From contig JBGSSC010000475.1 of NCBI GenBank assembly GCA_041737265.1, positions 1-60,609 of the forward strand: a stretch of DNA of 60,609 bases, read 5' to 3'. This DNA is from Terrimicrobiaceae bacterium (GTDB lineage: Bacteria > Verrucomicrobiota > Verrucomicrobiia > Chthoniobacterales > Terrimicrobiaceae). Positions within the stretch are counted from its first letter, which is position 1, and each line of letters begins with the position of its first letter. This document shows positions 7,781 to 55,536 of the stretch, piece by piece. The position numbers and the translations under genes are program-made. The notes under the pieces were generated by a model. That model ran no database searches. It was not told where the DNA came from and saw only the letters and a list, made by a program, of their open reading frames with translations.

Positions 7781-7785
7781 TAATT

Positions 7786-17430: not shown

Positions 17431-17512
17431 CCCAAAAGGGTGCAACCCAAAAATCGATGTCTTGCAGCCGGAACACTGTCTGCGCCACGGAGATATTGGA
17501 CGTGCGTTTTTA

Positions 17513-17630: not shown

Positions 17631-17647
17631 CCAAAAGTTCTCTTCTT

Positions 17648-18403: not shown

Positions 18404-18444
18404 GGGACCCCTGACTTTTTAGGATTCGATTTGCGCCGCCGCCG

Positions 18445-22960: not shown

Positions 22961-22975
22961 GGCTGAATAAACGTT

Positions 22976-24457: not shown

Positions 24458-24478
24458 CGACCGCTGCACGCAGGTGAA

Positions 24479-26872: not shown

Positions 26873-26994
26873 GACCTTTTGATTTCATTTTAAAAATCAC
26901 GGTCGCGGCCGACCCGAAGATATCACTGCAAAATACTTTCCAGAAAATTACCCGGTTGCTGCGGCGATCAGGGGGCTCCCTCGCGACTCGCCTC

Positions 26995-28290: not shown

Positions 28291-28312
28291 TAATTCAGCG
28301 CAACAACACACC

Positions 28313-38716: not shown

Positions 38717-40213
38717 CTAGTGTGAAGTCGCCGCCGGGCCGTTCGCAACCTCCTCGGGGTCCGAGCCGGGCGGGACATAGTGGGCGTCGCCGCCAAGCTG
38801 TTTCCAAGTGCGGTAGAGGCTAACGAGGAAATACATTCCCAAGCCAAGGAAAGGGAGTGTCCACACCGGGATCATGCGGTAGTAAAAGTCCTTGCCCCAT
38901 GTCGCGTCCGGGAAAAATGTGCGCATGAGGTCGATGAAGCCGCCGGCCATCAGGCCGCCGAGCGCCGACGCGGCGGCCCCGCAGATCGCGTTGAAGGAGC
39001 AGAACTGCCCGTAGCGCGACCGGGGCAGGATTCTCATGAACATGGGCATTGAGATCGCGTTATTGATCATGGCGAGCGGCAGATTGACCACCTGGAGCGC
39101 GATCAAAATCCGGAAATTGATCTCCGGCGTGAAGTCGGTGAAAAGCCAGACGAAATTCAGCGGGGCCGTTAGGAGCAGCCCGGCCTGGACCCACATCATC
39201 ACCCGCAGGGGATGGATGCGGTCGGCCAGCGCCCCGGCCGGATAGGTTAGGATCATATTGGCAATGGCCACCGCTGCGGCGATGCTGCCAAGCTGATGGA
39301 GCGTCAACCCCAGCGACAAGTTGAGGAAAACGGCAAAAATCCCGCAGGCCGCAGAGAGGTTCCAGAACGTGTAGGTCAGGAAAAAATAACGGTAGATGGG
39401 GTGTTGGAGGCATTCAGCGGCATAGTTCCTGACGAGCAGAAAGAGGTTGGTGCGGCCTTCCACCAGCTTGGCCGGGGGTGGGTATTTTCCTTCCTTGACG
39501 AAGAAGCACATTAGGCTGAATCCAACGAGGTAAAGACCTGCCACGCAGAGGAAGATCAGCCGCAGGTGGCTCAGGGCATACTCGTAGATAAAGTAGCTGT
39601 AGAGCGCGCCTGCCCCCGCCCCGACCATCCGGAAAAGACCGAGAAACCGCGCCATGAACTGCTGGGGCACCACGTCGTTGAAGAAATACCAAAAGACCGT
39701 GTTGACGAACATGTCGCTCAACTTGAAGAGCCCCATAGCCACAGCAATGACGACGACCGTGGTCCCCGCAGCGCTCCAGCCAGTTGTCACACCAATCAGG
39801 CCGTGCAGCCACGTTCCGATTTCCGTGGAGAAGGCCAGTAGACAGAGCGCCAGCGAGACGAACGGAACGGTGAAAAGCATGAACGGGATTCGCCGCCCGA
39901 AGCGCCCCCGGTGGCGGTCACTAGCGGTGCTGATGAACGGGTTCATCAGCACGTTGAGAATGCTTGGGATCGTCAGAATCACCAAGCCCAGGACCCAGTT
40001 CGGGGCCTGCAGTTCACCCAACCGCAGCGGCACGATGCTGGGAACCACGGTCTCCATCATCGTAAAACAAAAATCGCCCCATAAGAGCCACGTGAAGAGC
40101 CACGCGAGTCCCGCCGGGGAATAAACCAGGGTGCCAACCGTAAACTGTTTGGGACGGGACGCCGGGGGCAACGGCTCGGGTAATGAATCGACGGGAGCGG
40201 GCAGGCGGGGCAT
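38717..40213 (-). CDS. MFS-type sugar transporter (paralog 2 of 3)
   Basis: GTLVYSPAGLAWLFTWLLWGDFCFTMMETVVPSIVPLRL...APNW...SDRHRGRFGRRIPF and ~12 hydrophobic segments. It is the first gene of the minus-strand operon. Confidence 0.8.
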   Translation of the reverse strand: MPRLPAPVDSLPEPLPPASRPKQFTVGTLVYSPAGLAWLFTWLLWGDFCFTMMETVVPSIVPLRLGELQAPNWVLGLVILTIPSILNVLMNPFISTASDRHRGRFGRRIPFMLFTVPFVSLALCLLAFSTEIGTWLHGLIGVTTGWSAAGTTVVVIAVAMGLFKLSDMFVNTVFWYFFNDVVPQQFMARFLGLFRMVGAGAGALYSYFIYEYALSHLRLIFLCVAGLYLVGFSLMCFFVKEGKYPPPAKLVEGRTNLFLLVRNYAAECLQHPIYRYFFLTYTFWNLSAACGIFAVFLNLSLGLTLHQLGSIAAAVAIANMILTYPAGALADRIHPLRVMMWVQAGLLLTAPLNFVWLFTDFTPEINFRILIALQVVNLPLAMINNAISMPMFMRILPRSRYGQFCSFNAICGAAASALGGLMAGGFIDLMRTFFPDATWGKDFYYRMIPVWTLPFLGLGMYFLVSLYRTWKQLGGDAHYVPPGSDPEEVANGPAATSH

Positions 40214-40228
40214 TTTAAACTGTTTTGA

Positions 40229-40272
40229 TTTTCACGATGTGAACGCCAGAATGACGGGTTTCACCGTGAAAA
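40229..40272. promoter_or_regulatory. twin palindromes TTCAC-GAT-GTGAA (40231-40243) and TTTCAC-C-GTGAAA (40259-40271), nested in an 8-bp outer inverted repeat TTTTCACG/CGTGAAAA
   Basis: Read directly from the sequence. They lie 16-60 nt upstream of the MFS start (40213, minus strand), in the 326-nt divergent intergenic region shared with the regulator gene. A possible minus-strand -10 TATGAT lies at 40296-40291. Confidence 0.5.
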
Positions 40273-40539
40273 CTGCGTCGTTTTCAGTTGATCATATTTC
40301 TGTGGTGCTTGACCTAAGACTAATGTATGAAAAGAACAAGAAAGAATCGCCTGTATGACCCAAGCACAACCCGGAAACGCTCGAAATAGAGCGGCAGAGC
40401 CCTTTAAAATACAAAAAACATACTTTTTCCCTAGTCAAGCTGGATTGGTGCTTAAAACCACGCTTTATCCATCGACAACACGAAACGTTCAAATGCAGAC
40501 ACAACATATTTTTGAGGAAAAACCAGTTGGGGGCGAGCG

Positions 40540-41652
40540 ATGCTGAACCTCACCTTCACAAGTCGCGGCGGACTCAACGAGCAGATCCAGAGGGCCTTCC
40601 GGGAAAAGGTTGCCTCCGGGGAGCTGGCCCCTGGGCAGCGGCTGCCCACCGATGCGGAGTTCGCGGCCCAGTGGGGCGTTCATCATAACACCGTCCGCCA
40701 GGCTCTCGCAGAATTGGCCACGGAAGGTCTTCTCGTCCGTCATCGCGGACGCGGCACCTCGGTCTCTGCCGGTCGCGTCAAGCAGCATGTCGGAATCCTC
40801 TGCCCCACACGGCACCTCACCTCGCGCGGAAACGCCTCAACGCAGTTATTCCTACAATACTATCAGGACTGGGCCCATGAGCACCACGACCAATCGAAAC
40901 TCTATCTCGTCGATCATTCGCCCGACGATCAACCGTCGCTCCAACAATCAGATTTTCTGCGCGACCTCGATTCCAAACTTTTGCGCGGTTGTCTCGTACT
41001 GAATACCGCCGAATACGACAACCCTTGCTTGTTCGAAAAACTCAGGGCTCATCGCATTCCACTGGTGCTGCTCTGCGAGATGGCGATGAATTTTCCAACG
41101 GTCTGCTTCGATCAGGCTGACATCATCCGTCAAGGAGTGGCCTATCTCGCGCAACGCGGCTGTCGCCGCATCGGGGTGATCTGCGGAATCGATCCCCTGC
41201 CGGGAGCGCACCAAGCGGGCGCAACCTATGGCCGCGCCCTCCGGGAGGTTCTCAAAGATCTCGGCCAGCCCTGGCGACGCGATTCATTAAAGGATGAACG
41301 GCGCCCCACTGAGGAGTCCGGTTATCTGGCGATGAAGGAACTCTGGACTCAGGGACTTGAGAAGCCCGACGGGGTATTGTGCTGCGATGATGTGATGACG
41401 CGCGGAGTTTTTCAGGCCTGGTCGGACCTCGGCCTTCGGGCGCCTCAGGATCTGAATTTTATCACCCATTCCAATCGGGGGCTTCCGATCTTTCATCCGG
41501 TTCCCTTGACCCGCCTGGAGGCCGACGTGGGTGAGCTGGCAAGCGTGGCTGGTGAGATGCTGAATTCTCTGATGGCCAATCTTCCGCTTGCCCATCGTTC
41601 GCAAGATATCAAGCATACCTTGATCCCGGGGCAAACTTGCGGAGAATCCTAG
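40540..41652 (+). CDS. transcriptional regulator: GntR-type winged-HTH fused to a LacI/PBP1-type sugar-binding domain
   Basis: The N-terminus LPTDAEFAAQWGVHHNTVRQALAELATEGLLVRHRGRGTSV is a GntR-type wHTH. The remaining ~290 aa look like a LacI-family ligand domain (RIPLVLLC..., CRRIGVICG..., PDGVLCCDDVMTRGV). A GGGGG Shine-Dalgarno-like run precedes the ATG. Confidence 0.75.
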   Translation: MLNLTFTSRGGLNEQIQRAFREKVASGELAPGQRLPTDAEFAAQWGVHHNTVRQALAELATEGLLVRHRGRGTSVSAGRVKQHVGILCPTRHLTSRGNASTQLFLQYYQDWAHEHHDQSKLYLVDHSPDDQPSLQQSDFLRDLDSKLLRGCLVLNTAEYDNPCLFEKLRAHRIPLVLLCEMAMNFPTVCFDQADIIRQGVAYLAQRGCRRIGVICGIDPLPGAHQAGATYGRALREVLKDLGQPWRRDSLKDERRPTEESGYLAMKELWTQGLEKPDGVLCCDDVMTRGVFQAWSDLGLRAPQDLNFITHSNRGLPIFHPVPLTRLEADVGELASVAGEMLNSLMANLPLAHRSQDIKHTLIPGQTCGES

Positions 41653-41703
41653 CCTTCAGAAGATCCTCGTTATTTCGGCATAAAAGTCCCCAGAAAGATT
41701 TAA

Positions 41704-41733
41704 TTGACGATTCTCTTGCGATATAAATATACA
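41704..41733 (+). promoter_or_regulatory. possible sigma70-type promoter TTGACG-N18-TATACA
   Basis: This is the best -35/-10-like pair in the AT-richer 470-nt gap upstream of the DUF4838 operon. It is a pattern match only. Confidence 0.25.
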
Positions 41734-42120
41734 AAAACTACAGAAAAGCTCGCTCTCTCTAAACACCAACTTAAAAATAAGAACCACCCAGTCATGAAAA
41801 CCACAAAAAATCATCCTCGCCTCGGCGATCCCCTTGCTGACCGCACTCTCCAGCCCGCAGGCGCGCGGAAATCGCTCTAGACTTCGACCGTCTTGCGGAT
41901 GCCACGAAGGTCAAATTCCTCATCGACGATATCCAGATTGGCAGTCCGAACATTGAGAACACGAAGCCCGGCGGTCGGTAACGAAACTCCAGTCCAAATG
42001 CTTCCGGCGAAATACAATCCATGACCCGTATCATCGTCGGTGAAATCGCCTCGCATCGTTTTCCTTTGGCTGAAGAAGGCCGCAATCACCTCAGAATCCA
42101 ATGATAAAACACCACTCTCA

Positions 42121-44601
42121 GTGATTAACGGCCTCCGCATCCTAACAGTCACCCTGCTCTGCCTGACGCTATTTGGCTGCGGGAAAAAGGAGACATCGCT
42201 GCAGCTTGCCAACGACGGGAAATCCTCCGTCTGCATTGCATTAGCGGACTCTGCCTCTAAGCCGGAAAAATCAGCGGCCGCCGAGCTCGCGACCTACCTG
42301 AAAAAAGCGACAGGAGCGGAGTTCCCCATCGTTAAACCACAAGAGGCTGCTGGCCGACCCACCATCGCCGTCGGGCCCGGCGCAGCCAAGGCGCTGCTTC
42401 CGGATCTCGATCTGACCAAGTGGGGCGACCAGGGACTCGGCGAGGACGGAATTGTGCTCAAGTCAGCGGGATCGAACCTGATTCTGACCGGTGCCGAGGG
42501 CTCGCAGCGCGGAACGCTTTATGCGGTGTATGAATTTCTCGAGCGCACAGCCGGGGTCCGCTGGTGGACGCACACCGAGGAAACCGTCCCGCACAATCCC
42601 ACCCTCGCTGTGGAGTCGCTGGATATCCGGTATAAGCCGCCCTTCCTGTCCCGTGAGCCCTTCAGTTGGGGCATGACGCTAGGCGATCCCTATGACGCCT
42701 TTGACGATTCGGATGCCGCCGTGAAGGATTGGGACGTGGTGCGTTTCGCAGCGAGACAACGCAGCAACGGACATGGGGCGATGCTCCCTGCCAGCCTCGG
42801 CGGATGCCTCCTCCCGATCGGCTTTGTTCACACCAGCTACCAATTTCTGCCGCCGGGTAACTATTTCAAGGATCACCCGGATTGGTATAGCGAAGTCAAG
42901 GGGGTTCGAACAGCAGTGGGCGGCGAGGCGGGACATGGGCGCGGGCAGCTCTGCTGGACCAATGACGAAATGCTCGGGGAGCTGACTAAAGTGATTCTGG
43001 AAAAAATCCGCAAGAATCCGCAGCTCGGAATGGTCGATGTCAGCCAGAACGACTGGGACGACCACTGCGAGTGCGCCAAGTGCAAGGCGCTGGATGATGC
43101 CGGTGGCTCCCACGCGGCTTCTCTGATCTACGGCGTCAACCGCGTGGCAGAGGCGGTCGAAAAAGAGTTTCCAGGATTCCTTATCCAGACGCTCGCTTAC
43201 CAATACACGCGCAAGCCGCCCACGAACGTGCGCCCACGTGACAACGTCGTGATCCGTCTTGCCGTCATTGAGCGGGGCGCGACCCAGCCGATTGATAGTG
43301 ATCAGAACCGAGCCATGTTCGATGACCTCAAGGGCTGGTCGGCGGTCGCACCCAAACTTTCCATTTGGGATTATGTATCGAATGTTTACGGACCGCTCAC
43401 GCCGCATCCGAAGCATCAGGTGTTCGCCAAGGACTTCCGCACCTACCGCGACAACCACGCGGTTGGTGTATTCTTGGAGGGCGAATCGATCGGCGCGACC
43501 GATTTTATTGACTTCAAGAACTATCTCATGGCGCGGCTCTTGTGGGATCCCTCCCGCGATGAAAATGCGGTGATCGACGAGTTTCTTAATGGCTACTACG
43601 GCAAAGCCGGGCCATTCCTCCGCCAGGTCCTCGACCTTTACGCGGAGAAAGGAAGTCTGGCATTTCTCGGATCGTTTAATGACGGACTGGACGCGTCGTG
43701 GCTGGACCTTGCGGCGATGAACCGGGCGACCGAACTCTTCCAGCAGGCGGAAACGGCCGTCGCGCGCGCTCCCGAGGAACTGGCCCGGGTGAAAAGGGCG
43801 CGTCTCTCCCTCGACCATCAATGGCTGTTCAGCTATGGACGCTACCGGGAGCAGGCCGAACGCGATAAGGTATCCTTCCTTGGCCCGCAAGATCCGGCCA
43901 AGGCCCTCGCCGATTTTTCCACAGCGTTCCATCAAACCGCCACACCGCTCGACCAAACGTGGATGCCGACCTTTCAAAAAGTGCTGGATTTTGGCAGCGG
44001 AAAAGAGGGCTGGGATGCGTTCTTCGAACATTTTAAGGAGAAGGCCAAGCCACCGGCACTGGTGCCAGAGGCGTTCCGTAGCCTCCCGCCTTCAAGCGTC
44101 ATCGATATGGACGAGTCCCGGTGCTTCATTTACAAGGCTTCCGGCGCGACGATCGTGCCAGATCCCAAGGCCTCGAACGGTTTGGCCATGCGGGTTCCGA
44201 AAGCCCCCGCGCCGAGCTGGGGGTTGCAGGCACATACCAAACTCTTGAGTGCCTTAGGTGGTTTGGGCAGGTATCATGTCTATGCCGTGGCTCGTTGCGA
44301 ACTCCAAGCCGAATCCGGCGCCGCCTTCGTCGCCGGTCTCTATGACAGCCGGAGCAAACAGGGCATGGGAACGGTCAGTTTCCCAATCGGCAAACCCGCA
44401 CCCGCACTTGCATCCGGGGAGATCGACGCAAATCCGGCGGTCTTGGGAGTCACCACGAGCGGCAGCCCTGTCACTGATGGCGAGTATCATGTTTACGACC
44501 TCGGGGTCTATGACTTGTCGCACGGCCAGATGTATGTGTGGGTCGGCACAACGACTGGCGATCTGTTTGTAGACCGCTTCCTTTTCGTTAAAGAACCGTG
44601 A
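42121..44601 (+). CDS. DUF4838-like surface lipoprotein (putative glycan-active)
   Basis: GTG 42121 gives MINGLRILTVTLLCLTLFG-C (lipobox). LANDGKSSVCIALADSASKPEKSAAAELATYLKKATGAEFPIV, GTLYAVYEFLERTAGVRWW and HCECAKCKALD match my recollection of DUF4838. The longer track start at 42040 adds 27 non-signal residues. Confidence 0.6.
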   Translation: MINGLRILTVTLLCLTLFGCGKKETSLQLANDGKSSVCIALADSASKPEKSAAAELATYLKKATGAEFPIVKPQEAAGRPTIAVGPGAAKALLPDLDLTKWGDQGLGEDGIVLKSAGSNLILTGAEGSQRGTLYAVYEFLERTAGVRWWTHTEETVPHNPTLAVESLDIRYKPPFLSREPFSWGMTLGDPYDAFDDSDAAVKDWDVVRFAARQRSNGHGAMLPASLGGCLLPIGFVHTSYQFLPPGNYFKDHPDWYSEVKGVRTAVGGEAGHGRGQLCWTNDEMLGELTKVILEKIRKNPQLGMVDVSQNDWDDHCECAKCKALDDAGGSHAASLIYGVNRVAEAVEKEFPGFLIQTLAYQYTRKPPTNVRPRDNVVIRLAVIERGATQPIDSDQNRAMFDDLKGWSAVAPKLSIWDYVSNVYGPLTPHPKHQVFAKDFRTYRDNHAVGVFLEGESIGATDFIDFKNYLMARLLWDPSRDENAVIDEFLNGYYGKAGPFLRQVLDLYAEKGSLAFLGSFNDGLDASWLDLAAMNRATELFQQAETAVARAPEELARVKRARLSLDHQWLFSYGRYREQAERDKVSFLGPQDPAKALADFSTAFHQTATPLDQTWMPTFQKVLDFGSGKEGWDAFFEHFKEKAKPPALVPEAFRSLPPSSVIDMDESRCFIYKASGATIVPDPKASNGLAMRVPKAPAPSWGLQAHTKLLSALGGLGRYHVYAVARCELQAESGAAFVAGLYDSRSKQGMGTVSFPIGKPAPALASGEIDANPAVLGVTTSGSPVTDGEYHVYDLGVYDLSHGQMYVWVGTTTGDLFVDRFLFVKEP

Positions 44602-44611
44602 CTTCCGAATC

Positions 44612-45370
44612 ATGAAAATCAAAACGGACACGGTCTGCACAAGGCACGCGTTCACTTTGATCGAGGTGCTCACGGTCATCGCGGTCATCGCCATTCTTGC
44701 AGCACTCCTTTTTCCGGTCTTTGGCCGGGTGAGAAAATCGGCGGACAATGCCAAGTGCGTGAGCAACCTGCGCCAGCTCGGGGCGGCATTGACCACGATG
44801 ATCGGCGACCAAGCACCCAACCTGTCGGTTCACTACTACGATGGCTCCATAGAGCCGACCTGGTCATCCGATCTGGTGGACAAAGGCTATCTGACGTCCG
44901 ATGTGATGAAAAAGGTTGCCCGCTGCCCATCCTTGGCCACGCCAGCGAAGCATCTCGAAAACTACAGTTTCTTCTGCTACGGCCTGAACCGGTTGGCCAC
45001 GTTGACGAGGGTATCCGATCCCACGGCAAGCCCGCCGGTGCAGTGGGATGAAAAAATCAACACCTTGACCCTTCCCAAAGCCTCTTCCTCCGCCATCTTG
45101 GGAGACTCGGTTCTGCGTCCTGACTGGGACAACGCCTATCAATGGTTATTTTTTGGAGTTGGCAATGATGGCGATGGCGGAATTGTCCACGTCTGGCACA
45201 GCGGGCTAGCCAACTTCTTCTTCCTCGACGGGCACATTGAAGCCCTGAAGCCAGCTGAAATCCGTTCCCTGCAAACAGCAAACCCAGAGATCTACAGCCA
45301 AGGTCCGTTGGAGTATGCGGAGGAAACCATCAGTCCCGATGGCAAGGCTTCGATGAAAACGCTTCCGTAG
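44612..45370 (+). CDS. prepilin-type N-terminal domain protein of the H-X9-DG family (pseudopilin-like), paralog 2
   Basis: MKIKTDTVCTRHA-FTLIEVLTVIAVIAILAALLFPVF and HSGLANFFFLDGH (H-X9-DG). It starts 10 nt after the DUF4838 stop. Confidence 0.8.
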   Translation: MKIKTDTVCTRHAFTLIEVLTVIAVIAILAALLFPVFGRVRKSADNAKCVSNLRQLGAALTTMIGDQAPNLSVHYYDGSIEPTWSSDLVDKGYLTSDVMKKVARCPSLATPAKHLENYSFFCYGLNRLATLTRVSDPTASPPVQWDEKINTLTLPKASSSAILGDSVLRPDWDNAYQWLFFGVGNDGDGGIVHVWHSGLANFFFLDGHIEALKPAEIRSLQTANPEIYSQGPLEYAEETISPDGKASMKTLP

Positions 45371-45447
45371 TCCCATCGGCTAGTGGACTAAAGTGCCAAC
45401 GAAAACGAACGAGAAATCAACGAATCCCCGTCATCGACTGCACCAAC

Positions 45448-48400
45448 TTGAAAAACACTCCCTTTATTCTTTTCACCGTAGCTCTCGTCTTGTTGGCCGT
45501 GGGTTGTCGCAAGACGGCGACGACATCTCAGCCGCCGCCTGATCCGTCGCTGGTCTTCTCCCTTAGTGAGTTGGCGGAAACCGCAGTGAAACCCGGTTAC
45601 GTCCCGTCTACCGTCGAGCGCGGCACCTTAAAAGGTGATGCCCTGATCCGGGAGGGCACTCTTGTTCTCGACGGGAGTGGAGACTTTGCCGAAGTGCCCG
45701 ATAGCAAAGATTTCGCGCTCGCTCAAGGGCTCACACTGGAGGCCGTCGTCAAGCTGACTGCTAACAAAAACCATATGTTTGTCGGCAAGGTCGAGGATTG
45801 GCTTTTCGGATACGACGGTGAGGGGCGCCTCTACTTTAACATCAAGGCAAAAAAGGGTGATTGGTCCTGTGCCTCCCAGTCCGCAGGCAAAATCATTAAG
45901 GAAGGCGAATGGGTGCATGTGGCTGCGGTTTACAAGCCCAACCGCGATCCGCTCGCCGCCGCCAAGGGGCGGGTCGAGATTTACCTCAACGGAATCAATG
46001 TGGGATCAAGGGAAATGCTCTTCGAACCGGAGGAAACCGCCGGCCCGCTGCGCATCGGACGGCTCTGGGGTGACAGCGACCAGGCGGGTGTCTGGGATAT
46101 GAACGGGGAGATCCGCACTCTCCGCATTTACAAACGGGCGATGGATGCGTCGGAAATCGTCTCGCTGGCCTGCGATCAGCCGGGCATCCGCATGGACCCG
46201 CTGGTCTTCGAGGTGGTGCCGGATGTTATCGGAGGTCGTCTCGGGATCCGCGCCAAGCCCCAGCTATCGGCCTCAGCTCGGGCGGCTCTACAGGCGGCTG
46301 CGGCACGGGGTAAGGCGTCGCTGAGCGTAACCGTGCGAGGTCCCAATAAAGACAACGCCGCCACGCAGGAAGCCCGTTTCGCTTATGATCCCCAAACCGC
46401 GATCTACTGGATGCCTTACCGTTGGGCCGATGGCCAGCATGAGGTGAGCCTCAGCCTGGAAGGTGGCAGTTCTGCGATCACGGCCTCGCGCTCTGTGACC
46501 AAGCCGCCGACTCCCTGGCTCGGGCAAAGCAAGGCGCCAACAGAAGTATTGGCTCCCTGGACACCGCTGCAGACTTCCGACGGGAGGGTCGTCGAGTGCT
46601 GGGGTCGCCGCTATCTTTTTGACGGCCCCTTCCCGAAAAGCATCCTCAATCAGGGCCGCGAAATGCTGCGTGCCCCGATCACGCTCCAAGCCAAAAGCGG
46701 AGACCGGCAGGGGCGCCTTGAGGAAACCACACGCGCCACGGTGACGGAGAGCCCGGTTCGCGCCGAGTTCAAAGGAGAGGGCTCGTTTTCCGGCATCCCC
46801 GATCTGAAGGTCTCATGGACGTCCTGGACGGAATACGACGGGGTGACCTACACCACCGTCACGCTCACGCCGTCTGGAAAGAATGTTCAACTCGATGCGC
46901 TCAGCCTTTCCATCCCGCTGCGTCCCGACATGACCCGGTATCTCATCGGCGTCATGGGCGATCACCCCCTCAAATTTAAGGGAGGCGGCGACCCGGCAAG
47001 CAGGCCGATTCGGCTCGACGGCCAGCGGGTCGAATTGGAGCGCTTCATGCCGTATCTCTGGCTCAACAATCTCGACGAGGGCTTTGTCTGGTTTGCCGAT
47101 TCGGACGCTAACTGGGTGACCCCCGACGGCCGTGCGCCGATCGTGGTGGATGGCGGGGCGGAGGCTGGCATCACGCTTCGGCTCATCGACGAGCCCACCA
47201 CGCTCACTGGCCCGGTCACCTACTCCCTCGGCTTCCAAGCCACGCCCGTCAAGCCACTGCGGGCCGACCGTTTCTCCCATCGCTGGGGCGAGACCGCCCA
47301 CCAGCCGGAGGTCAGCAACTTTGTTTATCTCGCAGGGTTTTCCAAGAGCGAGGGAATGTGGCTGCCGGCGGATGGACCGAAGCTCAAAGGCTATCTCGAT
47401 GCGCAGTTGGCGAAGGGCATTTCCTGCTTTCCCTATGCATCGCTTAACGGCACGGGAGACCACAACCAGGTCTATGATTTCTTCCAATCGCTTTGGCACG
47501 CGCCGGGCGGTTATGTCTTCGGGCCGTTCAACCGCTCCATCAGTTATCCGAGCTATCTCGAAGATGGCAAACGCGTCAGCCCTTTCATGGGCGAAGAAGC
47601 CCTCAAGGCACAGGTGCAACACAGCGTGCCACGGGTTAATCCCGGCCTGCCTTCCTATGCCGACTACCTCTGCTGGACGGCGGAAGAACTCGAACGTCAG
47701 TCGGGGCCGGTGAGTCTTTACACCGATCTCTCGTATCATGTGGATCCGGCGTGGACCACGGATCTCGCCAAAGTGAACCCGGCACACCTCGGGGTGGATC
47801 AGTTTGGACGCACATTTTTCGATTACCGAATTCTCGGGATGCGAGACCTCGCCCGGCGACTGGCTGAGATCGTGCGCCGCCACAGCACGCCGGAGCGTCC
47901 TCTGACCTGGATGGCCCACGACCAAAACCGCTTCTGCCCCGTTTATCACGGCTATGCCGACTGGTGGTTTCCCGGCGAGCAATACAACGACGTCTTTTCG
48001 AAACACGGCCCGTTCGGCCTGATGGATGGAAGCATTCCAGTCGAACAGTTTCGCGTCGAGAGCGCCGACGAGCGCGCTTCCGGGGTGCCCGGCGTCCTGC
48101 TGACGCAGTTCCTGCGCTGGAGTTTCATGCGCGATCCGGGCTTCTGGGGCGCCGACCAGCTTAAGGCGGCACCGACTCCGGAATTGCTGAATGCCGCTGC
48201 CGACTCAGTCATCGCCCGCTGCGCGGTCGAGGGCGTGGAATTTCTCGCCACCTGGGAGATGAAAGATGCGGCACCGGAGTGGTGGAAACTGCGCAAGCGC
48301 CTCGGCCTTGATTCCTTTGAAGCCCGCTTCTTACCCTATTGGCGTTCCGGCTGCCCGGCCACGACCAACACGGAGGCGGCCATGGTCTCGGCCTACGCCT

Positions 48401-48624
48401 TTGATGGAAAGCGTGCGGTGCTGGTCATCGCTAACCCTCTCCCCAACGAAATGCCCGTCGAGGTTGCCGTGGACTTGAGCGCTCTGAATTGGCCAGCGGG
48501 CGCAGTGCCTCTCCTCACCGACGAGCGGACCGGCGCCAGCATCCCTTGGAAAGACGGACATTTCACCGTTCCGGTCAAAGCGCGGAATTACACGCTAGTC
48601 AGTCTAAGCACGATGTTTCGATAG
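45448..48624 (+). CDS. large surface lipoprotein: N-terminal LamG domain plus ~800-aa uncharacterised region
   Basis: A TTG start is required for the signal peptide/lipobox MKNTPFILFTVALVLLAVG-C. The LamG pattern (LVLDGSGDFAEVP...GLTLEAVVKL...WVHVAAV...IYLNGINVG...GEIRTLRIYKRAMDASEI) is a divergent paralog of 17648 and 18445. I do not recognise the remainder. Confidence 0.6.
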   Translation: MKNTPFILFTVALVLLAVGCRKTATTSQPPPDPSLVFSLSELAETAVKPGYVPSTVERGTLKGDALIREGTLVLDGSGDFAEVPDSKDFALAQGLTLEAVVKLTANKNHMFVGKVEDWLFGYDGEGRLYFNIKAKKGDWSCASQSAGKIIKEGEWVHVAAVYKPNRDPLAAAKGRVEIYLNGINVGSREMLFEPEETAGPLRIGRLWGDSDQAGVWDMNGEIRTLRIYKRAMDASEIVSLACDQPGIRMDPLVFEVVPDVIGGRLGIRAKPQLSASARAALQAAAARGKASLSVTVRGPNKDNAATQEARFAYDPQTAIYWMPYRWADGQHEVSLSLEGGSSAITASRSVTKPPTPWLGQSKAPTEVLAPWTPLQTSDGRVVECWGRRYLFDGPFPKSILNQGREMLRAPITLQAKSGDRQGRLEETTRATVTESPVRAEFKGEGSFSGIPDLKVSWTSWTEYDGVTYTTVTLTPSGKNVQLDALSLSIPLRPDMTRYLIGVMGDHPLKFKGGGDPASRPIRLDGQRVELERFMPYLWLNNLDEGFVWFADSDANWVTPDGRAPIVVDGGAEAGITLRLIDEPTTLTGPVTYSLGFQATPVKPLRADRFSHRWGETAHQPEVSNFVYLAGFSKSEGMWLPADGPKLKGYLDAQLAKGISCFPYASLNGTGDHNQVYDFFQSLWHAPGGYVFGPFNRSISYPSYLEDGKRVSPFMGEEALKAQVQHSVPRVNPGLPSYADYLCWTAEELERQSGPVSLYTDLSYHVDPAWTTDLAKVNPAHLGVDQFGRTFFDYRILGMRDLARRLAEIVRRHSTPERPLTWMAHDQNRFCPVYHGYADWWFPGEQYNDVFSKHGPFGLMDGSIPVEQFRVESADERASGVPGVLLTQFLRWSFMRDPGFWGADQLKAAPTPELLNAAADSVIARCAVEGVEFLATWEMKDAAPEWWKLRKRLGLDSFEARFLPYWRSGCPATTNTEAAMVSAYAFDGKRAVLVIANPLPNEMPVEVAVDLSALNWPAGAVPLLTDERTGASIPWKDGHFTVPVKARNYTLVSLSTMFR

Positions 48625-48948
48625 GCGGTTCATACAAATGCCCGGATCCCAACAGTCAAACACGCTCAAGCCTCCAAGGCTACCGTCTCAAGACTCTCCC
48701 TCTCTCCCGCAAACTCAATCAAGCGGGATGCGTGTTGGTGACGAAATCTTTCACGCGGAGGCCGCTCAATAAATCCGTTAGGCCCATGATCCACCGCGAA
48801 AACCCATCCTTTCCCAGGAAGGCGGGCAGCAGGATTTTTTCCCGCACGTGGAAAATGAGTTTCAGAAGACCTCCTTTGGCTGAGACGGCCGGCTGATTTT
48901 CATCCGAGATCTCATGCCCGATCAAACGAACATGTCTCACTCAATTTT

Positions 48949-49392
48949 ATGATAAATAATGAATGTTTAAATGGCTGGTGGGATTTCCTGCCGGTCGAAA
49001 CCACCACCGAAATTCCCGCCCAGGTTCCCGTCGCAGATGAAACCACTTACTTTACCAATGGCAGCGGGGCCTATCCCGTCGCCGACATCATTGCCGTCGA
49101 GCGTTTTCTCCCCAATAGCCACGCCGGCCATGTCAAATGGCGCGAGATCGAAGGCAAGAAATACTACATGCCCGGCGAAGTCTGCGACCCCATCGGACGC
49201 GAGTGGTTCTTCACCGAGGACGACCAACCCCGCAGTGACGAGGAATTGCTTGGCATGTATCTCGTGAGCATCAGCCGCGGGACCAATCTCCTGCTAGATG
49301 TCGGCCCTGACAAGCACGGCCTGATTCCGCAAAAGTATGTGGGCGCCTTGCAGCGGCTGCGAAAAAATCTCGACCGGCTTGGCGTTGTCTGA
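48949..49392 (+). pseudogene. chimeric ORF: first 28 codons of a GH2 gene fused to the last ~110 codons of a GH29 fucosidase gene
   Basis: MINNECLNGWWDFLPVETTTEIPAQVPV matches 22976.. (MLDNHCLNGWWDFLPVETSTQIPAEVPV). From ~49057 onward, ...DIIAVERFLPNSHAGHVKWREIEGKKYYMPGEVCDPIGREWFFTEDDQPRSDEELLGMYLVSISRGTNLLLDVGPDKHGLIPQKYVGALQRLRKNLDRLG matches the C-terminus of 28313..29329 almost residue for residue. It lacks the GH29 catalytic N-terminal blocks. Confidence 0.8.
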
Positions 49393-49579
49393 GCAGGTGT
49401 TTTTATAACAACCGATGAAGACATGACTATTCCCACCTCATACATCCTCCGCGTCGTCGGTCTCGGCAAAGACCGAAGCATTATTTCATCCGTATTTGCC
49501 AATGAACACTGGTCCATAGGTAAAATTTGCGAAAAGAACGAAGGCAAAAACCTTGCTGCTTACAATTTCGCTGACTTCT

Positions 49580-49598
49580 GAGGCGATGGCCTCGCCTC
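49580..49598 (+). terminator. GC-rich hairpin GAGGCGA-TGGCC-TCGCCTC
   Basis: It is a perfect 7-bp stem with a 5-nt loop, read directly from the sequence. It has no clean U-tract (followed by TAGGAAATTAGAGTTTCTTG), so its role as a terminator is uncertain. Confidence 0.25.
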
Positions 49599-49821
49599 TA
49601 GGAAATTAGAGTTTCTTGAGCGGCTGATGAAGGTTGACGGAAGGCCGTGCTGTTAATGATGGAAGGCATTTCCGGAATTCTCAGACCATCGGTGAATGGT
49701 TAAAACCTTCGTGAACGGGATCCCGCAAGATCGCAAATTGCTCATCCCCCTATTTGCAATACATTTTTGCTTTGCACACCGGGCAAAAGTCCCATGGTAA
49801 AGCCAATGAACTCGTCCTGCC

Positions 49822-51264
49822 ATGAGCAACGCCCCCTCTGATCCCGCCGCGAAAACCTTTCATGTCGGAACGCTCACCTATACCAAGGCCGGGCTGTTTT
49901 CTCTCTTCACGTGGCTGCTGTGGGGTGACTTCTGTTTTATGCTCATGGAGGTGGCGGCTCCGGCGGTGCTGCAGGTCAATCTCAATGAGATGGGCGCGCC
50001 GAACTGGGTGCTTGGGCTGGTGCTTTCAACGATTCCGGGAATCTTAAACATGACCGTTTGTCCGGCCTCCAGCTTCTGGAGTGACCGGTTCCGCAGCCGT
50101 TGGGGACGTCGGATTCCGTTTTTATTCCTCGCGACAATTCCGCTCACTTTTTTCCTCATTCTCCTCGGGTTTTCCAAACAAATCGGCACTTTGCTGCATG
50201 GGGCAATCCATGGAGGGATTTCGCAGACGGCTGTTATCATCGGCGTCGTTGTTGTTTTGGTTTTCTGCTTCCAGGTCTTCAACATGGTTGTGGCCTCGGT
50301 TTATTACTACTTGTTCAATGACGTGGTCCCGGCGGAAGTGCTTGCGCGGTTCATGTCGATATTCCGGATCGTCGGGGTGCTCTCCGGCGCGGTCTTCAAT
50401 TGGTTTTTTCTCAAATATGCGGTGAGTCATATGACTGAAGTGTATTTGATCGCGGCCGGGCTCTACGCAACGGCCTTTTTGCTGATGTGTTGGAAGGTGA
50501 AAGAAGGCGAATACCCTCCGCCCCCGGCCCATCCGGATGGCGGGTCGGGAATCATTAGCGGCATCAAAACATTTTTTGTGGAGTCCTATTCGATCAAGTT
50601 CTACTGGCTCTTTTTTCCGGCCAACACATGTTTTGCATTAACCTCAGTCGCAGGGGGATTTAACATTCTCCAAGCCCGTTCCATCGGGGTTGACCTCGAT
50701 TTTTTTGGCAAGACAACAGCGATTGCCTCGATTGTCAGTGCCGTGCTGATGTATCCCGCCGGAATTGTCTCGGACCGAACCCATCCCTTGCGGGTTCTCA
50801 TGTGGGCCACGATCGCATTGCTGATTATCCAACCGCTCTGGCTGATCTTCTTGTTTATGGATTTCAGCCCCGGCGTGTCCCACGGGATTTTTATCGCCAT
50901 CACAGCTGTCACAGCACCGGCACTCGCCCTCTACATGGCTGCCGAGCTTCCAATGTATATGCGAATTCTTCCCAAGTCCCGCTACGGGCAGTTCTGCTCG
51001 GCCAATGCCATGGTCCGCTCGTTTGCCATCATCATCGGAGGGTTAGTTATCGGGATTGCTCTGGACCGGCTCGCGATCTGGTTCCCGACTAAGGATTATT
51101 GCTATCGTTTTGTCCCGCTCTGGTCGCTCGTCTTTATCGGTGCTTCGTTGTTTTTCCTCCGCAGGCTCTACGCGGATTGGCAGATGCGGGGCGGCATGAC
51201 GTCGTATCATCCTCCGGGTTTTGAACCAAAGGACGAACCTGATGCCGAGACTGTCTCCACATGA
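49822..51264 (+). CDS. MFS-type sugar transporter (paralog 3 of 3)
   Basis: GTLTYTKAGLFSLFTWLLWGDFCFMLMEVAAPAVLQVNL...APNW...SDRFRSRWGRRIPF and ~12 hydrophobic segments. It is the first gene of a tightly packed 7-gene block. Confidence 0.8.
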   Translation: MSNAPSDPAAKTFHVGTLTYTKAGLFSLFTWLLWGDFCFMLMEVAAPAVLQVNLNEMGAPNWVLGLVLSTIPGILNMTVCPASSFWSDRFRSRWGRRIPFLFLATIPLTFFLILLGFSKQIGTLLHGAIHGGISQTAVIIGVVVVLVFCFQVFNMVVASVYYYLFNDVVPAEVLARFMSIFRIVGVLSGAVFNWFFLKYAVSHMTEVYLIAAGLYATAFLLMCWKVKEGEYPPPPAHPDGGSGIISGIKTFFVESYSIKFYWLFFPANTCFALTSVAGGFNILQARSIGVDLDFFGKTTAIASIVSAVLMYPAGIVSDRTHPLRVLMWATIALLIIQPLWLIFLFMDFSPGVSHGIFIAITAVTAPALALYMAAELPMYMRILPKSRYGQFCSANAMVRSFAIIIGGLVIGIALDRLAIWFPTKDYCYRFVPLWSLVFIGASLFFLRRLYADWQMRGGMTSYHPPGFEPKDEPDAETVST

Positions 51265-53231
51265 AAAATTCAATCAAAGAACCCAAGCGACTGACCCGCG
51301 CCGAAAGCTTTCTCGGCTTTCATTTTGACTTTCACGCGACCGCCGACAACCAGCCGATCGGCGGGCGTTCGTTCAGGGCCGATCTGGCCAGGATGCTGCG
51401 TGCGGCAAAGCCAGACTATGTGCAGTGCGATTGCAAGGGACACCCCGGCGTTTCGAGTTATCCGACAAAGGTGGGAAATCCCGCGCCGAAATTTGCGGGC
51501 GACGCGCTGAAGGTCTGGCGCGAAGAAACCGCCCGGCAGGGAGTGGCGCTCTTCATGCATTACTCGGGAGTGTGGGACACCGAGGCGCTCCGGCTTCATC
51601 CAGAATGGGCGCGAATTGACGAAAAGGGGAAGCGTGATCCTAATAACACTTCGGTTTTCGGTCGTTATGTCCACGAGCTGATGATTCCCCAGTTCGTCGA
51701 ACTCCGCAGGGAATACGACGTGGACGGCTTCTGGGTGGATGGCGACTGCTGGGCCACCGGACAGGATTACCATCCGGAGGTGCTTAAAAAATTCCGTAGC
51801 CTGACTGGCCTACGTACCGTTCCAAAAAAGATCGGAGATCCCGGCTTTTTTGAATTCACCGAGATGTGTCGTGAAGGCTTTCGTGAGTATGTGCGGACGT
51901 ATGTGAACGCGCTGCACGAGCAATGCCCTGGAGTTCAAGTGGCCAGCAATTGGGCGTTCAGTTCTTTCATGCCCGAGCCGGTCAGTGTTCCTGTCGATTT
52001 TCTCTCTGGCGACTACGCCATGATTGATGCGGTGAACTCCGCGCGGTTTGAAGGGCGGTGTCTCATGCATCAGGGAAAAGCTTGGGACCTTATGGCATGG
52101 GCGTTTGCGGCCAAGTCACTCAACGATTGCTTCACCGCGAAGTCGATCGTGCAGATCCAGCGCGAAGCCGCGATCGTGCTGGCGCTCGGGGGTGGCATCC
52201 AGGTTTATTTCCAGCAACGGCGGGACGGATCGATCCCGGCGCATGAAATCGACACGATGATCGAAGTGGCGAAGTTCTGTCGCCGTCGTCAGAAGTTTTG
52301 TCATCGGGCCACCAGCGTCCCGCAGGTGGCGGTGCTTCTTTCCAAAGATGCCTTCTATCGCGGAAACCGGCGCGTGTTCGGAGCTTGGGACGGTAATTAC
52401 CTCGCGCTTTGGGGGCTGGTGAGCGGACTGATCGAAAACCAAACCTGTGTCGATGTGGTCGGCGAGCACCATCTCAGCGGTTCGATGGGAAGGTTTCCGC
52501 TCATCGTCATTCCGGAGTGGCAGTCGCTGGAGGAAGATTTTCGCCAAGAGCTGTTGGCTTACGTTCGCGACGGTGGTCGACTGCTCGCAGTCGGATGCGG
52601 GCCAACCAAGCTCTTTGCAGAAGAACTTGGACTTTCGATCGTGAGTGATGCTTCCCGGCAGGACCGTTGGCTCGCCGCCCCATGCGGGCTTGCTGGTGTC
52701 CGCAGTGATGGCCTCACCCTCAAGTCTGCGCGAGGCACAAAAGTCACCGCCGTGTGGCACGAGGAACGGGATCCGACCGCACTCAGTCATCCCGCCGTTG
52801 TGAAACGTAAACTCGGACGCGGAGCGATCGCTGCCATGTGTTTTGACTTTGGGACGGCCTACAGGGAACACAAGACATGTCATGCCCGGGACTTCCTTGG
52901 TGCCGTTGTGAGGGATCTTTTTCCAGATCCGATTGTTGAAATTCAAGGCACTCATCTGGTTGATGTCAGTCTCATGACCAAGGACGGCGACCTATTTGTT
53001 CATCTTGTGAACACGTCCGGTCCCCATGCCCAGCTCGATGTGCCGACACACGACGAAATCTTGCCGATCCTTCACGTCACAGTGCGAATCCGCCTCGACA
53101 AAAAACCGCAGATGATCACGAGGCAACCCGCCGGAAAACCACTCCCGTTCACGTGGAGCAAGGGCATTTGCAACCTCGCCATTTCTCAGATTGATGTTCA
53201 TGAAATCATCCAAATCCGTCCCGCCAGCTAA
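51261..53231 (+). CDS. cytoplasmic TIM-barrel putative glycosidase (GH29/GHL-like layout), family unresolved
   Basis: ATGA overlap with the MFS stop (51261-51264). FHFDFHA...YVQCDCKGHPGVSSYPTKVG...ALFMHYSGVWD...ELRREYDVDGFWVDGDCW echoes the layout of GH29 (KHHDGF...W.DG) and of the 29948..31972 protein. No signal peptide. Confidence 0.45.
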   Translation: MKNSIKEPKRLTRAESFLGFHFDFHATADNQPIGGRSFRADLARMLRAAKPDYVQCDCKGHPGVSSYPTKVGNPAPKFAGDALKVWREETARQGVALFMHYSGVWDTEALRLHPEWARIDEKGKRDPNNTSVFGRYVHELMIPQFVELRREYDVDGFWVDGDCWATGQDYHPEVLKKFRSLTGLRTVPKKIGDPGFFEFTEMCREGFREYVRTYVNALHEQCPGVQVASNWAFSSFMPEPVSVPVDFLSGDYAMIDAVNSARFEGRCLMHQGKAWDLMAWAFAAKSLNDCFTAKSIVQIQREAAIVLALGGGIQVYFQQRRDGSIPAHEIDTMIEVAKFCRRRQKFCHRATSVPQVAVLLSKDAFYRGNRRVFGAWDGNYLALWGLVSGLIENQTCVDVVGEHHLSGSMGRFPLIVIPEWQSLEEDFRQELLAYVRDGGRLLAVGCGPTKLFAEELGLSIVSDASRQDRWLAAPCGLAGVRSDGLTLKSARGTKVTAVWHEERDPTALSHPAVVKRKLGRGAIAAMCFDFGTAYREHKTCHARDFLGAVVRDLFPDPIVEIQGTHLVDVSLMTKDGDLFVHLVNTSGPHAQLDVPTHDEILPILHVTVRIRLDKKPQMITRQPAGKPLPFTWSKGICNLAISQIDVHEIIQIRPAS

Positions 53232-55536
53232 CAAGAGTTTTAGCAATCCGACGATTCCTGATGCGCTCAAGCAAGCCCGCTGGATCTGGCCGGGGCTGCA
53301 AAACCACGATTTGAACAACGGCTATGCGCTGTTTCGCAAGGCGTTCACTCTGGATGTGGTTCCGAAACGAGCCCGGCTTTCCATCACCGCCGATCAAGCG
53401 TATCGATTATATATCAACGGCACCTACGTGTGCAGCGGCCCGGCACGCGGCTTCCAGACCCATTGGCCGTATGATCAACTCGATGTGGCCCCACACCTCA
53501 AGGCAGGCCGTAATGTGATCGCCGTGCGAGCCTATCATCCGGGATGCGGGACGTTTTCGTATGTCTCTCACGACACCGCCGGAGTGCTCCTCGCCTTGGA
53601 GGTCGGAAAAGTCCGCTTGGTCACGGATCATTCGTGGAAGTGTCGCCGTCAGACCGGGGTGAACAAAAACACGGTCCCCTACAGCGCCCAGTTGGCATTT
53701 CAGGAGCATGTGGATCTGCGCGAAGAATTTCCGGATTGGTTCAAACCAAACTTCCGCGATGCGGACTGGGAACATCCTTATGACAGCCGCACGTGGAATG
53801 CGATGCCGTGGTATTCCTTGGAGTCACGGGGGATCCCGATGTTGAAGGAGGATGAGATCTTTTTTGGAAAGCTCATCGGGCGTGCCAGTGGTGCGGCGCA
53901 CAGCGATGCCGCCTCTCCGCGCGATGTTTTCCTTCAACGGTATCATGATGGCCTGACCCACCAACCTGCTACGTCTACCGCTAAGGCATTGAGTTTTAAT
54001 CCCGCCGGCGAGCGGCGCTGGGAAAGTGTCCTGATCGATTTTGGCCGCACCATCGTGGGCACGCAACTTCTCATCGCCAAAGGCGCAAAAGGCGGGGAGA
54101 TCGTGGATATCACATTTTACGAAACCCTCGGGAAGGACACGCTCACGCCGGACGTTGATACCAAGTCGTTCTCCGCGCTTGCCATGGGGAACCGGGCTGT
54201 CCTGCGTGGCGGCACGAACGAGCACACGTTTTTTCATCCCATGGGTTTCCGCTACGCCGTGCTGACCGTGCGGGATTCGGAGGTTCCACTAAAGCTAGAT
54301 TTTTCGGTTCGGAGAATGGCCTATCCACACACTCGCGAGGGGACATTTCAATCGTCGGATGCCACTCTCAATGCCATTTGGGAATCGTGTGCCTGGACCC
54401 AGGAATGCTGCAGCCTTGATGCGTATGTGGACACACCCTGGCGTGAGCAGGCCCAATGGTGGGGCGACGCGCGGGTGCAGGCATGGAACACCTTTCATTT
54501 CTGCAATGACGCCCGGCTTCTGCGGCGTGGTATCCATTGTATTGCGTCGCAGACCGTTCCGAATGGCCTCACTTACGCCCATGCGCCGACCAAAGCCCAC
54601 TCGTGCATCCTGCCGGATTTCAGTCTCACTTGGATTCTCACACTCTGGGATCACTACTGGCAGACCGGTTCAACCGAGGCCTTTGAAACTCACGAGGCAA
54701 CCGTCGGTGGTATTCTGAATTATTTCCGTGAAATGACCGATCCAAAAACCGGACTGATCCGTCATGACCCGCGGTACTGGCTCTTCCTCGATTGGACGAC
54801 TTTGCACAAAGAGGGATGTCCCACCGTTTTGAGCCTCTGGTTGCTCGAAGCCCTGGACAAGGTCGTCCGACTACACACCGCAACTGGTCAGGCCGGGAAA
54901 GCCCAACCTCTGAAAACCTGGAGCGCCCACCTTCGAAAGTCTCTCCTGCGTCTTGTTGGTCGTGATGGCCTTTTGGCCGATGGCTATGACGCCAAGGGCA
55001 AAGTGGTGAAGCAGTCTTCGATCCACTCCCAGACACTGGCGTTGCTTACCAATCTGGCACCCGAACACGAAGCAGCAATGCTCGGGAAGCGCCTTCTTCC
55101 CTACATCCGAGGGGAAGAGACGTTTGAGGCCATGCCCACTTCCTATTGGGTCACCTATGTTCTTACGGAGTTGTCGAAACGTGGTTACGGAACGGACGTC
55201 GTGACCTTCATCAAAACACATTGGGCAAAAATGGCTGAGCATGGCACGACTTGGGAAACCTTTGAACCCGGACGCGGGAATGAGAGCTTTTCCCATGCCT
55301 GGTCGGCGCATCCACTGTACCACCTCATGCAGATCCTTGGTGGGATCCGTCAGACAGCACCCGGATGGGAAACGATTTCTTTTGACCCGACGTTCATCGG
55401 AGATTTCCTGGATTGCAGGATTCCCACCCCGCATGGTCCGATCCAATCTACATGGAAGCGTCAGGGAGAATCCCACGAGGTCGAACTATTTCTCCCCAAA
55501 GGCATCACCGCATCCCAACCTCAAAGAAAAAATTGA
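53194..55536 (+). CDS. GH78-like (alpha-L-rhamnosidase family) six-hairpin glycoside hydrolase
   Basis: The N-terminal ARWIWPG...YALFRKAFTL...LSITADQAYRLYINGTYV (rhamnosidase N-domain style) and DTPWREQAQWWGDARVQ (compare D.P.RE...W.GD of GH78). The start at ATG 53194 or 53200 overlaps the upstream gene by ~30-40 nt. Confidence 0.6.
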   Translation: MFMKSSKSVPPANKSFSNPTIPDALKQARWIWPGLQNHDLNNGYALFRKAFTLDVVPKRARLSITADQAYRLYINGTYVCSGPARGFQTHWPYDQLDVAPHLKAGRNVIAVRAYHPGCGTFSYVSHDTAGVLLALEVGKVRLVTDHSWKCRRQTGVNKNTVPYSAQLAFQEHVDLREEFPDWFKPNFRDADWEHPYDSRTWNAMPWYSLESRGIPMLKEDEIFFGKLIGRASGAAHSDAASPRDVFLQRYHDGLTHQPATSTAKALSFNPAGERRWESVLIDFGRTIVGTQLLIAKGAKGGEIVDITFYETLGKDTLTPDVDTKSFSALAMGNRAVLRGGTNEHTFFHPMGFRYAVLTVRDSEVPLKLDFSVRRMAYPHTREGTFQSSDATLNAIWESCAWTQECCSLDAYVDTPWREQAQWWGDARVQAWNTFHFCNDARLLRRGIHCIASQTVPNGLTYAHAPTKAHSCILPDFSLTWILTLWDHYWQTGSTEAFETHEATVGGILNYFREMTDPKTGLIRHDPRYWLFLDWTTLHKEGCPTVLSLWLLEALDKVVRLHTATGQAGKAQPLKTWSAHLRKSLLRLVGRDGLLADGYDAKGKVVKQSSIHSQTLALLTNLAPEHEAAMLGKRLLPYIRGEETFEAMPTSYWVTYVLTELSKRGYGTDVVTFIKTHWAKMAEHGTTWETFEPGRGNESFSHAWSAHPLYHLMQILGGIRQTAPGWETISFDPTFIGDFLDCRIPTPHGPIQSTWKRQGESHEVELFLPKGITASQPQRKN

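Follow-up and report, generated by a model that had tools for sequence, protein, structure and literature searches.

A prepilin-like gene between two putative lipoprotein glycosidase genes in a probable, much-rearranged verrucomicrobial glycan-utilisation cluster

In a 60,609-nt stretch of DNA from a Terrimicrobiaceae bacterium (contig JBGSSC010000475.1 of assembly GCA_041737265.1, from a biofilm or hot-spring metagenome; hereafter the window), three genes follow one another on the + strand: one for a DUF4838 lipoprotein (gene 1), one for a prepilin-like protein of the H-X9-DG family (gene 2, the pseudopilin) and one for a lipoprotein that joins a LamG domain to a PF19543 body (gene 3). We consider it probable that this block is a slice of a larger, much-rearranged verrucomicrobial cluster for glycan utilisation, similar to a polysaccharide utilisation locus (PUL) and headed by an upstream GntR regulator gene, and that the order of these three genes arose recently, as a lineage-specific accident in a highly fluid region. 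Pseudopilin genes in verrucomicrobial polysaccharide clusters have already been documented, and this locus is one more example. In such a cluster a prepilin peptidase would process the pseudopilin, and a common type II secretion or type IV filament machine, with its genes elsewhere, would assemble it; it would serve as a cluster-specific, co-induced accessory subunit that helps the co-expressed lipoprotein glycosidases to reach the surface or captures their glycan substrate, and would not be a dedicated partner of the DUF4838 or LamG proteins. This processing and use of a shared machine are suggested by the class III signal of gene 2, its glutamate at position +5 and the analogy with PulG and PulA.

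The gene coordinates (Table 1) and the intergenic gaps agree with those given in a first-pass annotation of this DNA: 10 nt separate the gene 1 stop from the gene 2 ATG (44602–44611, letters CTTCCGAATC), and 77 nt separate the gene 2 stop from the gene 3 TTG (45371–45447). A terminator-like site was found on the + strand at 48876, 3′ of gene 3, and none on that strand at 44601–45448. Because no such site lies between genes 1 and 3, the trio, which in this genome forms a tight same-strand block, is probably carried on one transcript. The targeting signals would direct all three products to the envelope, as the first-pass annotation had proposed from the lipoboxes LFG-C and AVG-C. By pattern matching, the lipobox is LTLFG-C in gene 1 (LALLGC and LALTGC in orthologs) and LLAVG-C in gene 3 (AFTSC and AFIGC in orthologs), and it is conserved in most orthologs of both; gene 2 has the class III signal RHA/FTLIE with E+5. 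Purifying selection acts on all three genes, whose dN/dS (ratio of nonsynonymous to synonymous substitution rates) against orthologs is 0.15–0.30; the range over all genes compared is 0.05–0.30. The gene 2/gene 3 junction is spanned by an independent Logan contig (45195–45753) with zero differences, and the one loose end that conflicts, at 49375, corresponds to the GH29 paralog at 29316. Long antisense or overlapping open reading frames (ORFs) at 42679–44031, 46813–48006, 44254–44820, 47132–47713 and 48489–48896 were treated as spurious, since they have no Pfam match and lie inside conserved + strand genes or spacer. No convincing operator-like inverted repeat was seen in the intergenic regions, an Rfam scan of 40000–52000 gave no match, and no tRNA gene was found in the whole window.

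The window consists almost entirely of genes for carbohydrate-active enzymes (CAZymes), transporters and regulators. Among them are genes for GH20, two GH123, DUF5107, LamG proteins, two GH2, GH63-like, GH29, two GHL6, GH13 and GH78-like members, together with three for major facilitator superfamily (MFS) transporters, one for PfkB and, directly 5′ of gene 1, one for a GntR-family regulator with a periplasmic-binding-protein (PBP)-like sensor. This GntR/PBP gene, a probable regulator of the genes downstream, is followed in turn by the DUF4838, pseudopilin and LamG–PF19543 genes, a gene remnant, and MFS, GHL6 and GH78 genes; it also precedes the DUF4838 gene in one other genome (L010) and lies further upstream in another (L007). 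The window thus resembles the SusC/SusD PULs of Bacteroidota in its clustered surface lipoprotein glycosidases, its sensor/regulator and its transporters, which are probably co-regulated, but differs in that a Pfam scan of its large ORFs revealed no SusC/SusD or TonB-dependent transporter and that MFS transporters and a pseudopilin take their place.

The genomic contexts of homologs in other genomes (labelled L001–L010 and L066–L069) showed that the synteny of the triad, on which the first-pass annotation had staked its case, is not conserved. Gene 2 orthologs at 75–78% identity lie in the order DUF4838–pseudopilin–MFS with no LamG gene. In L007 and L008 the order is GH20, DUF4838, pseudopilin and MFS; in L009 it is DUF4838, 1 kb with a duplicated DUF4838 3′ fragment, pseudopilin, MFS and GH78, with the MFS protein 88–89% identical to that of the window gene at 49822 and the GH78 protein 81% identical to that of the gene at 53191. 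The MFS gene is therefore the conserved direct 3′ neighbour of the pseudopilin in relatives, and because gene 3 is absent from this position in L007, L008 and L009, the stretch with gene 3 and the adjoining remnant (45.4–49.8 kb) is an insertion that parted the pseudopilin from the MFS gene usually next to it. The nearest genome, a Puniceicoccaceae metagenome-assembled genome (MAG; L010) whose DUF4838 protein is 70% identical, has a GntR gene, the DUF4838 gene and then a GH5-like gene, and in it a fragment of the pseudopilin ortholog (~70% identity) lies 5.7 kb 5′ of DUF4838, past three genes. In L068 a 63%-identical pseudopilin ortholog stands between unknown genes and a GH106 gene. In L009 we also observed that the duplicated DUF4838 3′ fragment (1431–1750) lies directly 5′ of the pseudopilin, ~0.7 kb past the intact DUF4838 gene, which suggests that a DUF4838 tail and the pseudopilin were moved or copied together.

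Gene 3 has neighbours of a different kind. Its orthologs (70–83% identity) follow FAD-oxidoreductase, GH13 or GH16 genes and are followed by GH43, GH63-like, GH2 and GH130 genes, and in four of the five ortholog contexts outside the window (L001–L006, L066/L067) no pseudopilin stands beside the gene. The fifth, L069, has pseudopilins on both sides, 1.6 kb 5′ and 124 nt 3′ of the gene 3 ortholog; they are other paralogs, 28–30% identical to the window copies. The recurrent companion of the LamG–PF19543 gene is a GH13/GH63-like/GH2 set, to which the gene remnants 5′ of the L006 ortholog also belong, and not a pseudopilin. For gene 1, we examined 53 DUF4838 homolog loci drawn from Planctomycetota–Verrucomicrobiota–Chlamydiota (PVC) and other phyla, and found a pseudopilin within 300 nt of DUF4838 in five of them (upstream in four of the five), near the 2.6–4 estimated from local pseudopilin density.

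These contexts bear on the proposal of the first-pass annotation that the trio is a novel, dedicated envelope system of three components, of which the window would hold two instances differing in gene order. Such a system could account for the tight spacing on one strand and the envelope targeting signals, for the pseudopilins on both sides of the LamG–PF19543 ortholog in L069, for the DUF4838–pseudopilin pair kept in L007, L008 and L009, and for the fact that both window pseudopilins adjoin a LamG gene (p ~0.03 in a gene-order permutation). However, among the contexts examined the triad occurs in the window only, 48 of the 53 DUF4838 loci lack a pseudopilin at a distance of up to 300 nt, the pseudopilins found elsewhere beside LamG or DUF4838 genes are unrelated paralogs (28–30% identity), so that ortholog pairs suited to a mirror-tree or co-evolution analysis occur only among close relatives, and the LamG gene is itself an insertion relative to close relatives. 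The two supposed instances in the window, moreover, share only ~31% identity between their pseudopilins and 30–34% between their LamG domains, which marks them as old paralogs and not as a duplicated module. We therefore regard a dedicated three-component system as very improbable. The related argument that recurrence signals functional linkage holds in part: pseudopilins do recur in CAZyme clusters of relatives and of a further verrucomicrobium (PMC13274419), but the triad as such was seen in the window alone.

What is recent in the supposed second instance is only the eroded GH2...GH29 copy, which the first-pass annotation had rightly placed downstream of gene 3; it had also rightly noted the paralogy of the LamG domains. 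An 86-nt piece (48947–49032) matches 22974–23059, the 5′ end of the GH2 gene at 22976, with 85% identity, and a 295-nt piece (49081–49375) matches 29021–29315, the GH29 3′ end, with 89% identity; between them lies a piece of ~48 nt resembling the N-terminus of the GH63-like gene. The remnant is a decayed duplicate of the 22976–29329 block (GH2–DUF4350–GH63-like–GH29), and its pieces are fused in frame into an ORF (48949–49392, 147 amino acids (aa)) in which a linker joins 28 aa of GH2 to 106 aa of GH29. A 12-nt direct repeat, TCCCGTCGC(A/C)GA, at 49026 and 49074 brackets the middle piece and suggests microhomology-mediated deletions. Since the copy begins just 5′ of the GH2 start codon, the duplication did not include the pseudopilin. 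Duplications, deletions and shuffles have made a mosaic of the whole region. In L006, 5′ of an 83%-identical LamG–PF19543 ortholog, we observed remnants of a DUF4350-like C-terminus, a GH63-like N-terminus and a GH13 N-terminus (1–400), so the same neighbourhood has decayed independently in a relative. Elsewhere in the window, the GH123-type genes at 7786–11454 (1222 aa) and 13786–17430 (1214 aa), which flank a DUF5107 gene, share 90% identity across 1212 residues and stem from a recent segmental duplication inside the cluster.

The proteins that flank the pseudopilin, which the first-pass annotation had described as lipoproteins of a pseudopilin, lectin and enzyme module, are better viewed as glycoside-hydrolase-type enzymes than as lectins. 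Gene 1 matches PF16126 (DUF4838) over model positions 1–325 of 325 (289 bits, E 4.8e-86 in Pfam), preceded by a weak GH67N/GH20b-like N-terminal domain and followed by 200 aa with no Pfam match; its dN/dS against orthologs is 0.15–0.16. DUF4838 is the catalytic domain of GH163 and GH185, founded respectively by BT1035, a surface endo-beta-N-acetylglucosaminidase acting on complex N-glycans, and by Sp_0475, a 6-sulfo-GlcNAcase whose mechanism is substrate-assisted and whose active-site residues are Q174, H227, D309 and Y436 (PMC10570127). Gene 1 is therefore a predicted glycosidase and not a protein without a role: probably a lipoprotein with a TIM-barrel domain acting on beta-linked N-acetylhexosamine (HexNAc). 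It resembles the GH163 and GH185 enzymes in carrying DUF4838 at full length, in being a predicted lipoprotein, which recalls the surface-located BT1035, and in the GH20 neighbour of its ortholog in L007; it stands apart in its C-terminal region of 200 aa. Searches of PDB sequences with phmmer and profiles found nothing for gene 1, which we would place in a DUF4838 sub-family beyond the characterised GH163/GH185 enzymes.

Gene 3 combines a Laminin_G_3 domain (78 bits, residues 75–237) with a PF19543 body (~residues 300–1058). Its LamG domain is 29.8% identical to that of the protein at 17594 (E 1.6e-18) and 33.7% identical to that of the protein at 18445 (E 3e-17), and an hhalign comparison of the gene 3 family with the LamG–DUF6259 protein (18445–22044) confined the homology to the LamG domain. 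PF19543, named GH123_N in Pfam, scored 48.2 bits against a cut-off of 22, with collinear matches at model positions 333–488 and 852–928. The large family around it has 1226 representatives (50% identity, E<=1e-30); among 41 sampled homologs PF19543 was present in 40 and LamG in 30. Its invariant residues D464, Y758, D760, R799, H824, D838, G843 and E844 include Asp, Glu, His, Tyr and Arg in a pattern that resembles an enzyme active site, so gene 3 is probably an uncharacterised glycosidase with a LamG domain of carbohydrate-binding type. DUF6259 was also matched by 9 of the 41 homologs; judging by these matches, PF19543 and DUF6259 may be related or combined in some proteins. Despite the Pfam name, assignment of gene 3 to GH123 was rejected: an hhalign comparison with the canonical GH123 protein of the window gave a probability of 0.1%, and the GH123 catalytic domain (PF13320) was found neither in gene 3 nor in its 41 homologs. 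Searches of the PDB with phmmer and profiles returned matches to the LamG domain only. An AlphaFold2 (AF2) model of gene 3 built from a 10-sequence alignment had a predicted local distance difference test score (pLDDT) of 51.6, below 50 over most of 598–948, and was set aside.

Gene 2 belongs to the H-X9-DG prepilin-like family, which has many diverged paralogs in PVC bacteria, and the window has two such genes only, at 22181 and 44612. It scored 24.3 bits for PF07963 (N_methyl; cut-off 21.2) and 27.2 bits for TIGR02532 (cut-off 16.3), and the H-X9-DG motif reported at first pass reads H196-SGLANFFFL-D206-G207, followed by H208. In an 86-sequence family alignment E18, N52, D206 and G207 are invariant and C49, C105, P106, Y123, H196, N201 and H208 are at least 90% conserved, which suggests a disulfide between C49 and C105 and a metal or ligand site formed by H196, N201, D206 and H208 in the head domain. 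The AF2 model (pLDDT 90.5) has a long N-terminal alpha1 helix and a beta-sheet head in a pilin-like topology. Gene 2 shares with the H-X9-DG/DUF1559 family of Planctomycetota, Verrucomicrobiota and Lentisphaerota (models TIGR02532 with TIGR04294 and PF07963 with PF07596) the N-methylation motif, Glu+5, the Cys pair and H-X9-DG-H, but differs in falling below reporting level on TIGR04294 and PF07596 (no match at E<=0.01) and in having its own 45-residue C-terminal tail, which is conserved and common only to orthologs at 60% identity or more. TIGR04294 is matched by the paralog at 22181 (26.1 bits), and PF07596 is carried by most gene 2 homologs at 26–35% identity. Planctomycete genomes hold tens of DUF1559 genes, 74 in Rhodopirellula baltica (PMC2754498); our search of the literature on DUF1559 and H-X9-DG found no functional study.

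In a family of this size the pseudopilin might be unrelated in function to its neighbours, its position merely reflecting an expanded, mobile set of paralogs and the density of both gene classes. Three family members picked regardless of CAZymes have varied neighbours, namely an MBOAT gene, an unknown gene and, close by, an esterase for the first, an AP-endonuclease-fold gene and, beyond it by one gene, a sulfatase for the second, and unknown genes on both sides for the third, and the H-X9-DG family is therefore not tied exclusively to CAZymes. The closeness of the five DUF4838 pairings to the density expectation also fits chance adjacency, as do the higher dN/dS of the pseudopilin (0.28–0.30 against orthologs) and a dS unlike that of its neighbour: between the window and L007, gene 2 has a dS of 0.42 and the adjacent DUF4838 gene one of 1.08, with dN/dS of 0.30 and 0.15, respectively. 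This gap in dS could stem from recombination, gene conversion or codon constraints. Against chance adjacency, the 10-nt spacing in the window and the close spacing or overlap in relatives imply co-transcription with DUF4838, and pseudopilins stand repeatedly directly after a cluster regulator, as in L001 (LacI–pseudopilin–GH123, 15003–18920) and L069 (GntR–pseudopilin–GH16, 4246–7959); being the first gene after the regulator may be a recurring feature. Further counter-evidence comes from Verruconatronum alginivorum (Verrucomicrobiota), where a pulG-like pseudopilin gene lies within the alginate-degradation cluster, this cluster and a second one account for 14 of 17 proteins with raised expression on alginate, and another pseudopilin, encoded outside the clusters, is over-expressed on alginate as well (PMC13274419). 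On balance we judge a pseudopilin foreign to its neighbours unlikely, although it keeps some weight.

The V. alginivorum cluster is also a close precedent for a pseudopilin as accessory subunit of a glycan-utilisation cluster. Its cluster pseudopilin has 67 homologs in the genome, and the authors of that study propose that a type II secretion system with genes at another site handles export (PMC13274419). Both loci have a prepilin-type gene among CAZyme and transporter genes, a big paralog expansion and secretion machinery encoded elsewhere; they differ in that alginate lyases are found there and glycosidases of HexNAc, fucose and rhamnose type here, and in that the present case consists of genes alone.

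A pseudopilin of this kind might, alternatively, be a subunit of a glycan-binding or -capturing fibre, an analog of SusD or of surface glycan-binding proteins, and not a secretion component, a proposal that overlaps the inferred part of our preferred reading. It would fit with the original classing of the related PF07596 among solute-binding proteins, with the near-invariant head residues N52, H196, N201, D206 and H208, which are compatible with a ligand or metal site, and with clusters that have MFS transporters and no SusC/SusD-type capture proteins. Yet these residues are conserved family-wide and are not specific to the clusters, and the AF2 model is unmatched to any known binding protein. 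We accordingly consider a capture role in place of secretion improbable.

The reading of the block as part of a glycan-utilisation cluster with an accessory pseudopilin likewise has points that weigh against it. In the Pul system, GspG/PulG is the major pseudopilin and the lipoprotein pullulanase PulA is exported by type II secretion. Gene 2 resembles PulG in being a pilin-like subunit genetically linked to surface-bound lipoprotein glycoside hydrolases and in its homologous N-terminal helix, but it scored 25.7 bits for TIGR01710 (GspG), far below the cut-off of 88.85, over residues 13–63 of that helix only; its head is unmatched, and a Foldseek search of the PDB with the AF2 model gave no significant match. 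Because of the missing PDB match and the low GspG score, the term type II secretion pseudopilin denotes a resemblance only. Pfam scans of the large ORFs in the window found no secretion or pilus machinery (secretin, ATPase or platform; gspD, gspE or gspF), so the route of assembly is an assumption. As to the enzymes, the activities of genes 1 and 3 are predicted from family membership, and the LamG–PF19543 body appears to have no characterised or structurally solved relative detectable by sequence. No RNA-seq runs were found for this organism. Last, the DUF4838–pseudopilin pair is kept in several close relatives and the adjacency of pseudopilin and LamG genes in the window, although suggestive only, has a p of ~0.03; together they mean that a specific partnership over short evolutionary distances may still exist.

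Table 1. Features of the block and its surroundings (positions in the window)
Feature	Position	Strand	Details
Gene 1, DUF4838 lipoprotein	42040/42121–44601	+	GTG start at 42121 gives 826 aa; ORF open from 42040
Gene 2, H-X9-DG pseudopilin	44612–45370	+	ATG start, 252 aa
Gene 3, LamG–PF19543 lipoprotein	45448–48624	+	TTG start, 1058 aa
GntR-family regulator, periplasmic-binding-protein-like sensor	40540–41652	+	Pfam GntR 65 bits, Peripla_BP_3 80.6 bits
GH2/GH63-like/GH29 remnant	48947–49375	+	blastn, blastp
MFS sugar transporter	49822–51264	+	Pfam MFS_1, MFS_2
GHL6-type putative glycosidase	51261–53231	+	Pfam
GH78-like alpha-L-rhamnosidase	53191–55536	+	Pfam

PVC bacteria rank among the major degraders of complex glycans, have tens to hundreds of H-X9-DG prepilin-like genes, and are to our knowledge without the SusC/SusD machinery by which glycan capture is explained in Bacteroidota. 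A speculative generalisation, which we put forward with low confidence, is that H-X9-DG pseudopilins in PVC glycan operons are substrate-induced, cluster-specific filament subunits that display the co-encoded lipoprotein glycosidases or escort them across the outer membrane, or that capture glycan; they would then be the PVC counterpart of the SusD-type PUL marker, with DUF4838 and the pseudopilin as one working pair. The role of these proteins in PVC glycan metabolism is a worthwhile question, for which this locus offers no special handle. Both enzymes, a member of a DUF4838 sub-family and a LamG–PF19543 protein of a large uncharacterised family, may be useful for enzyme discovery. If H-X9-DG pseudopilins do act as cluster-specific secretion or capture subunits, this would explain how enzymes are delivered and organised in PVC cells, and H-X9-DG genes would become a marker for finding glycan-utilisation loci.

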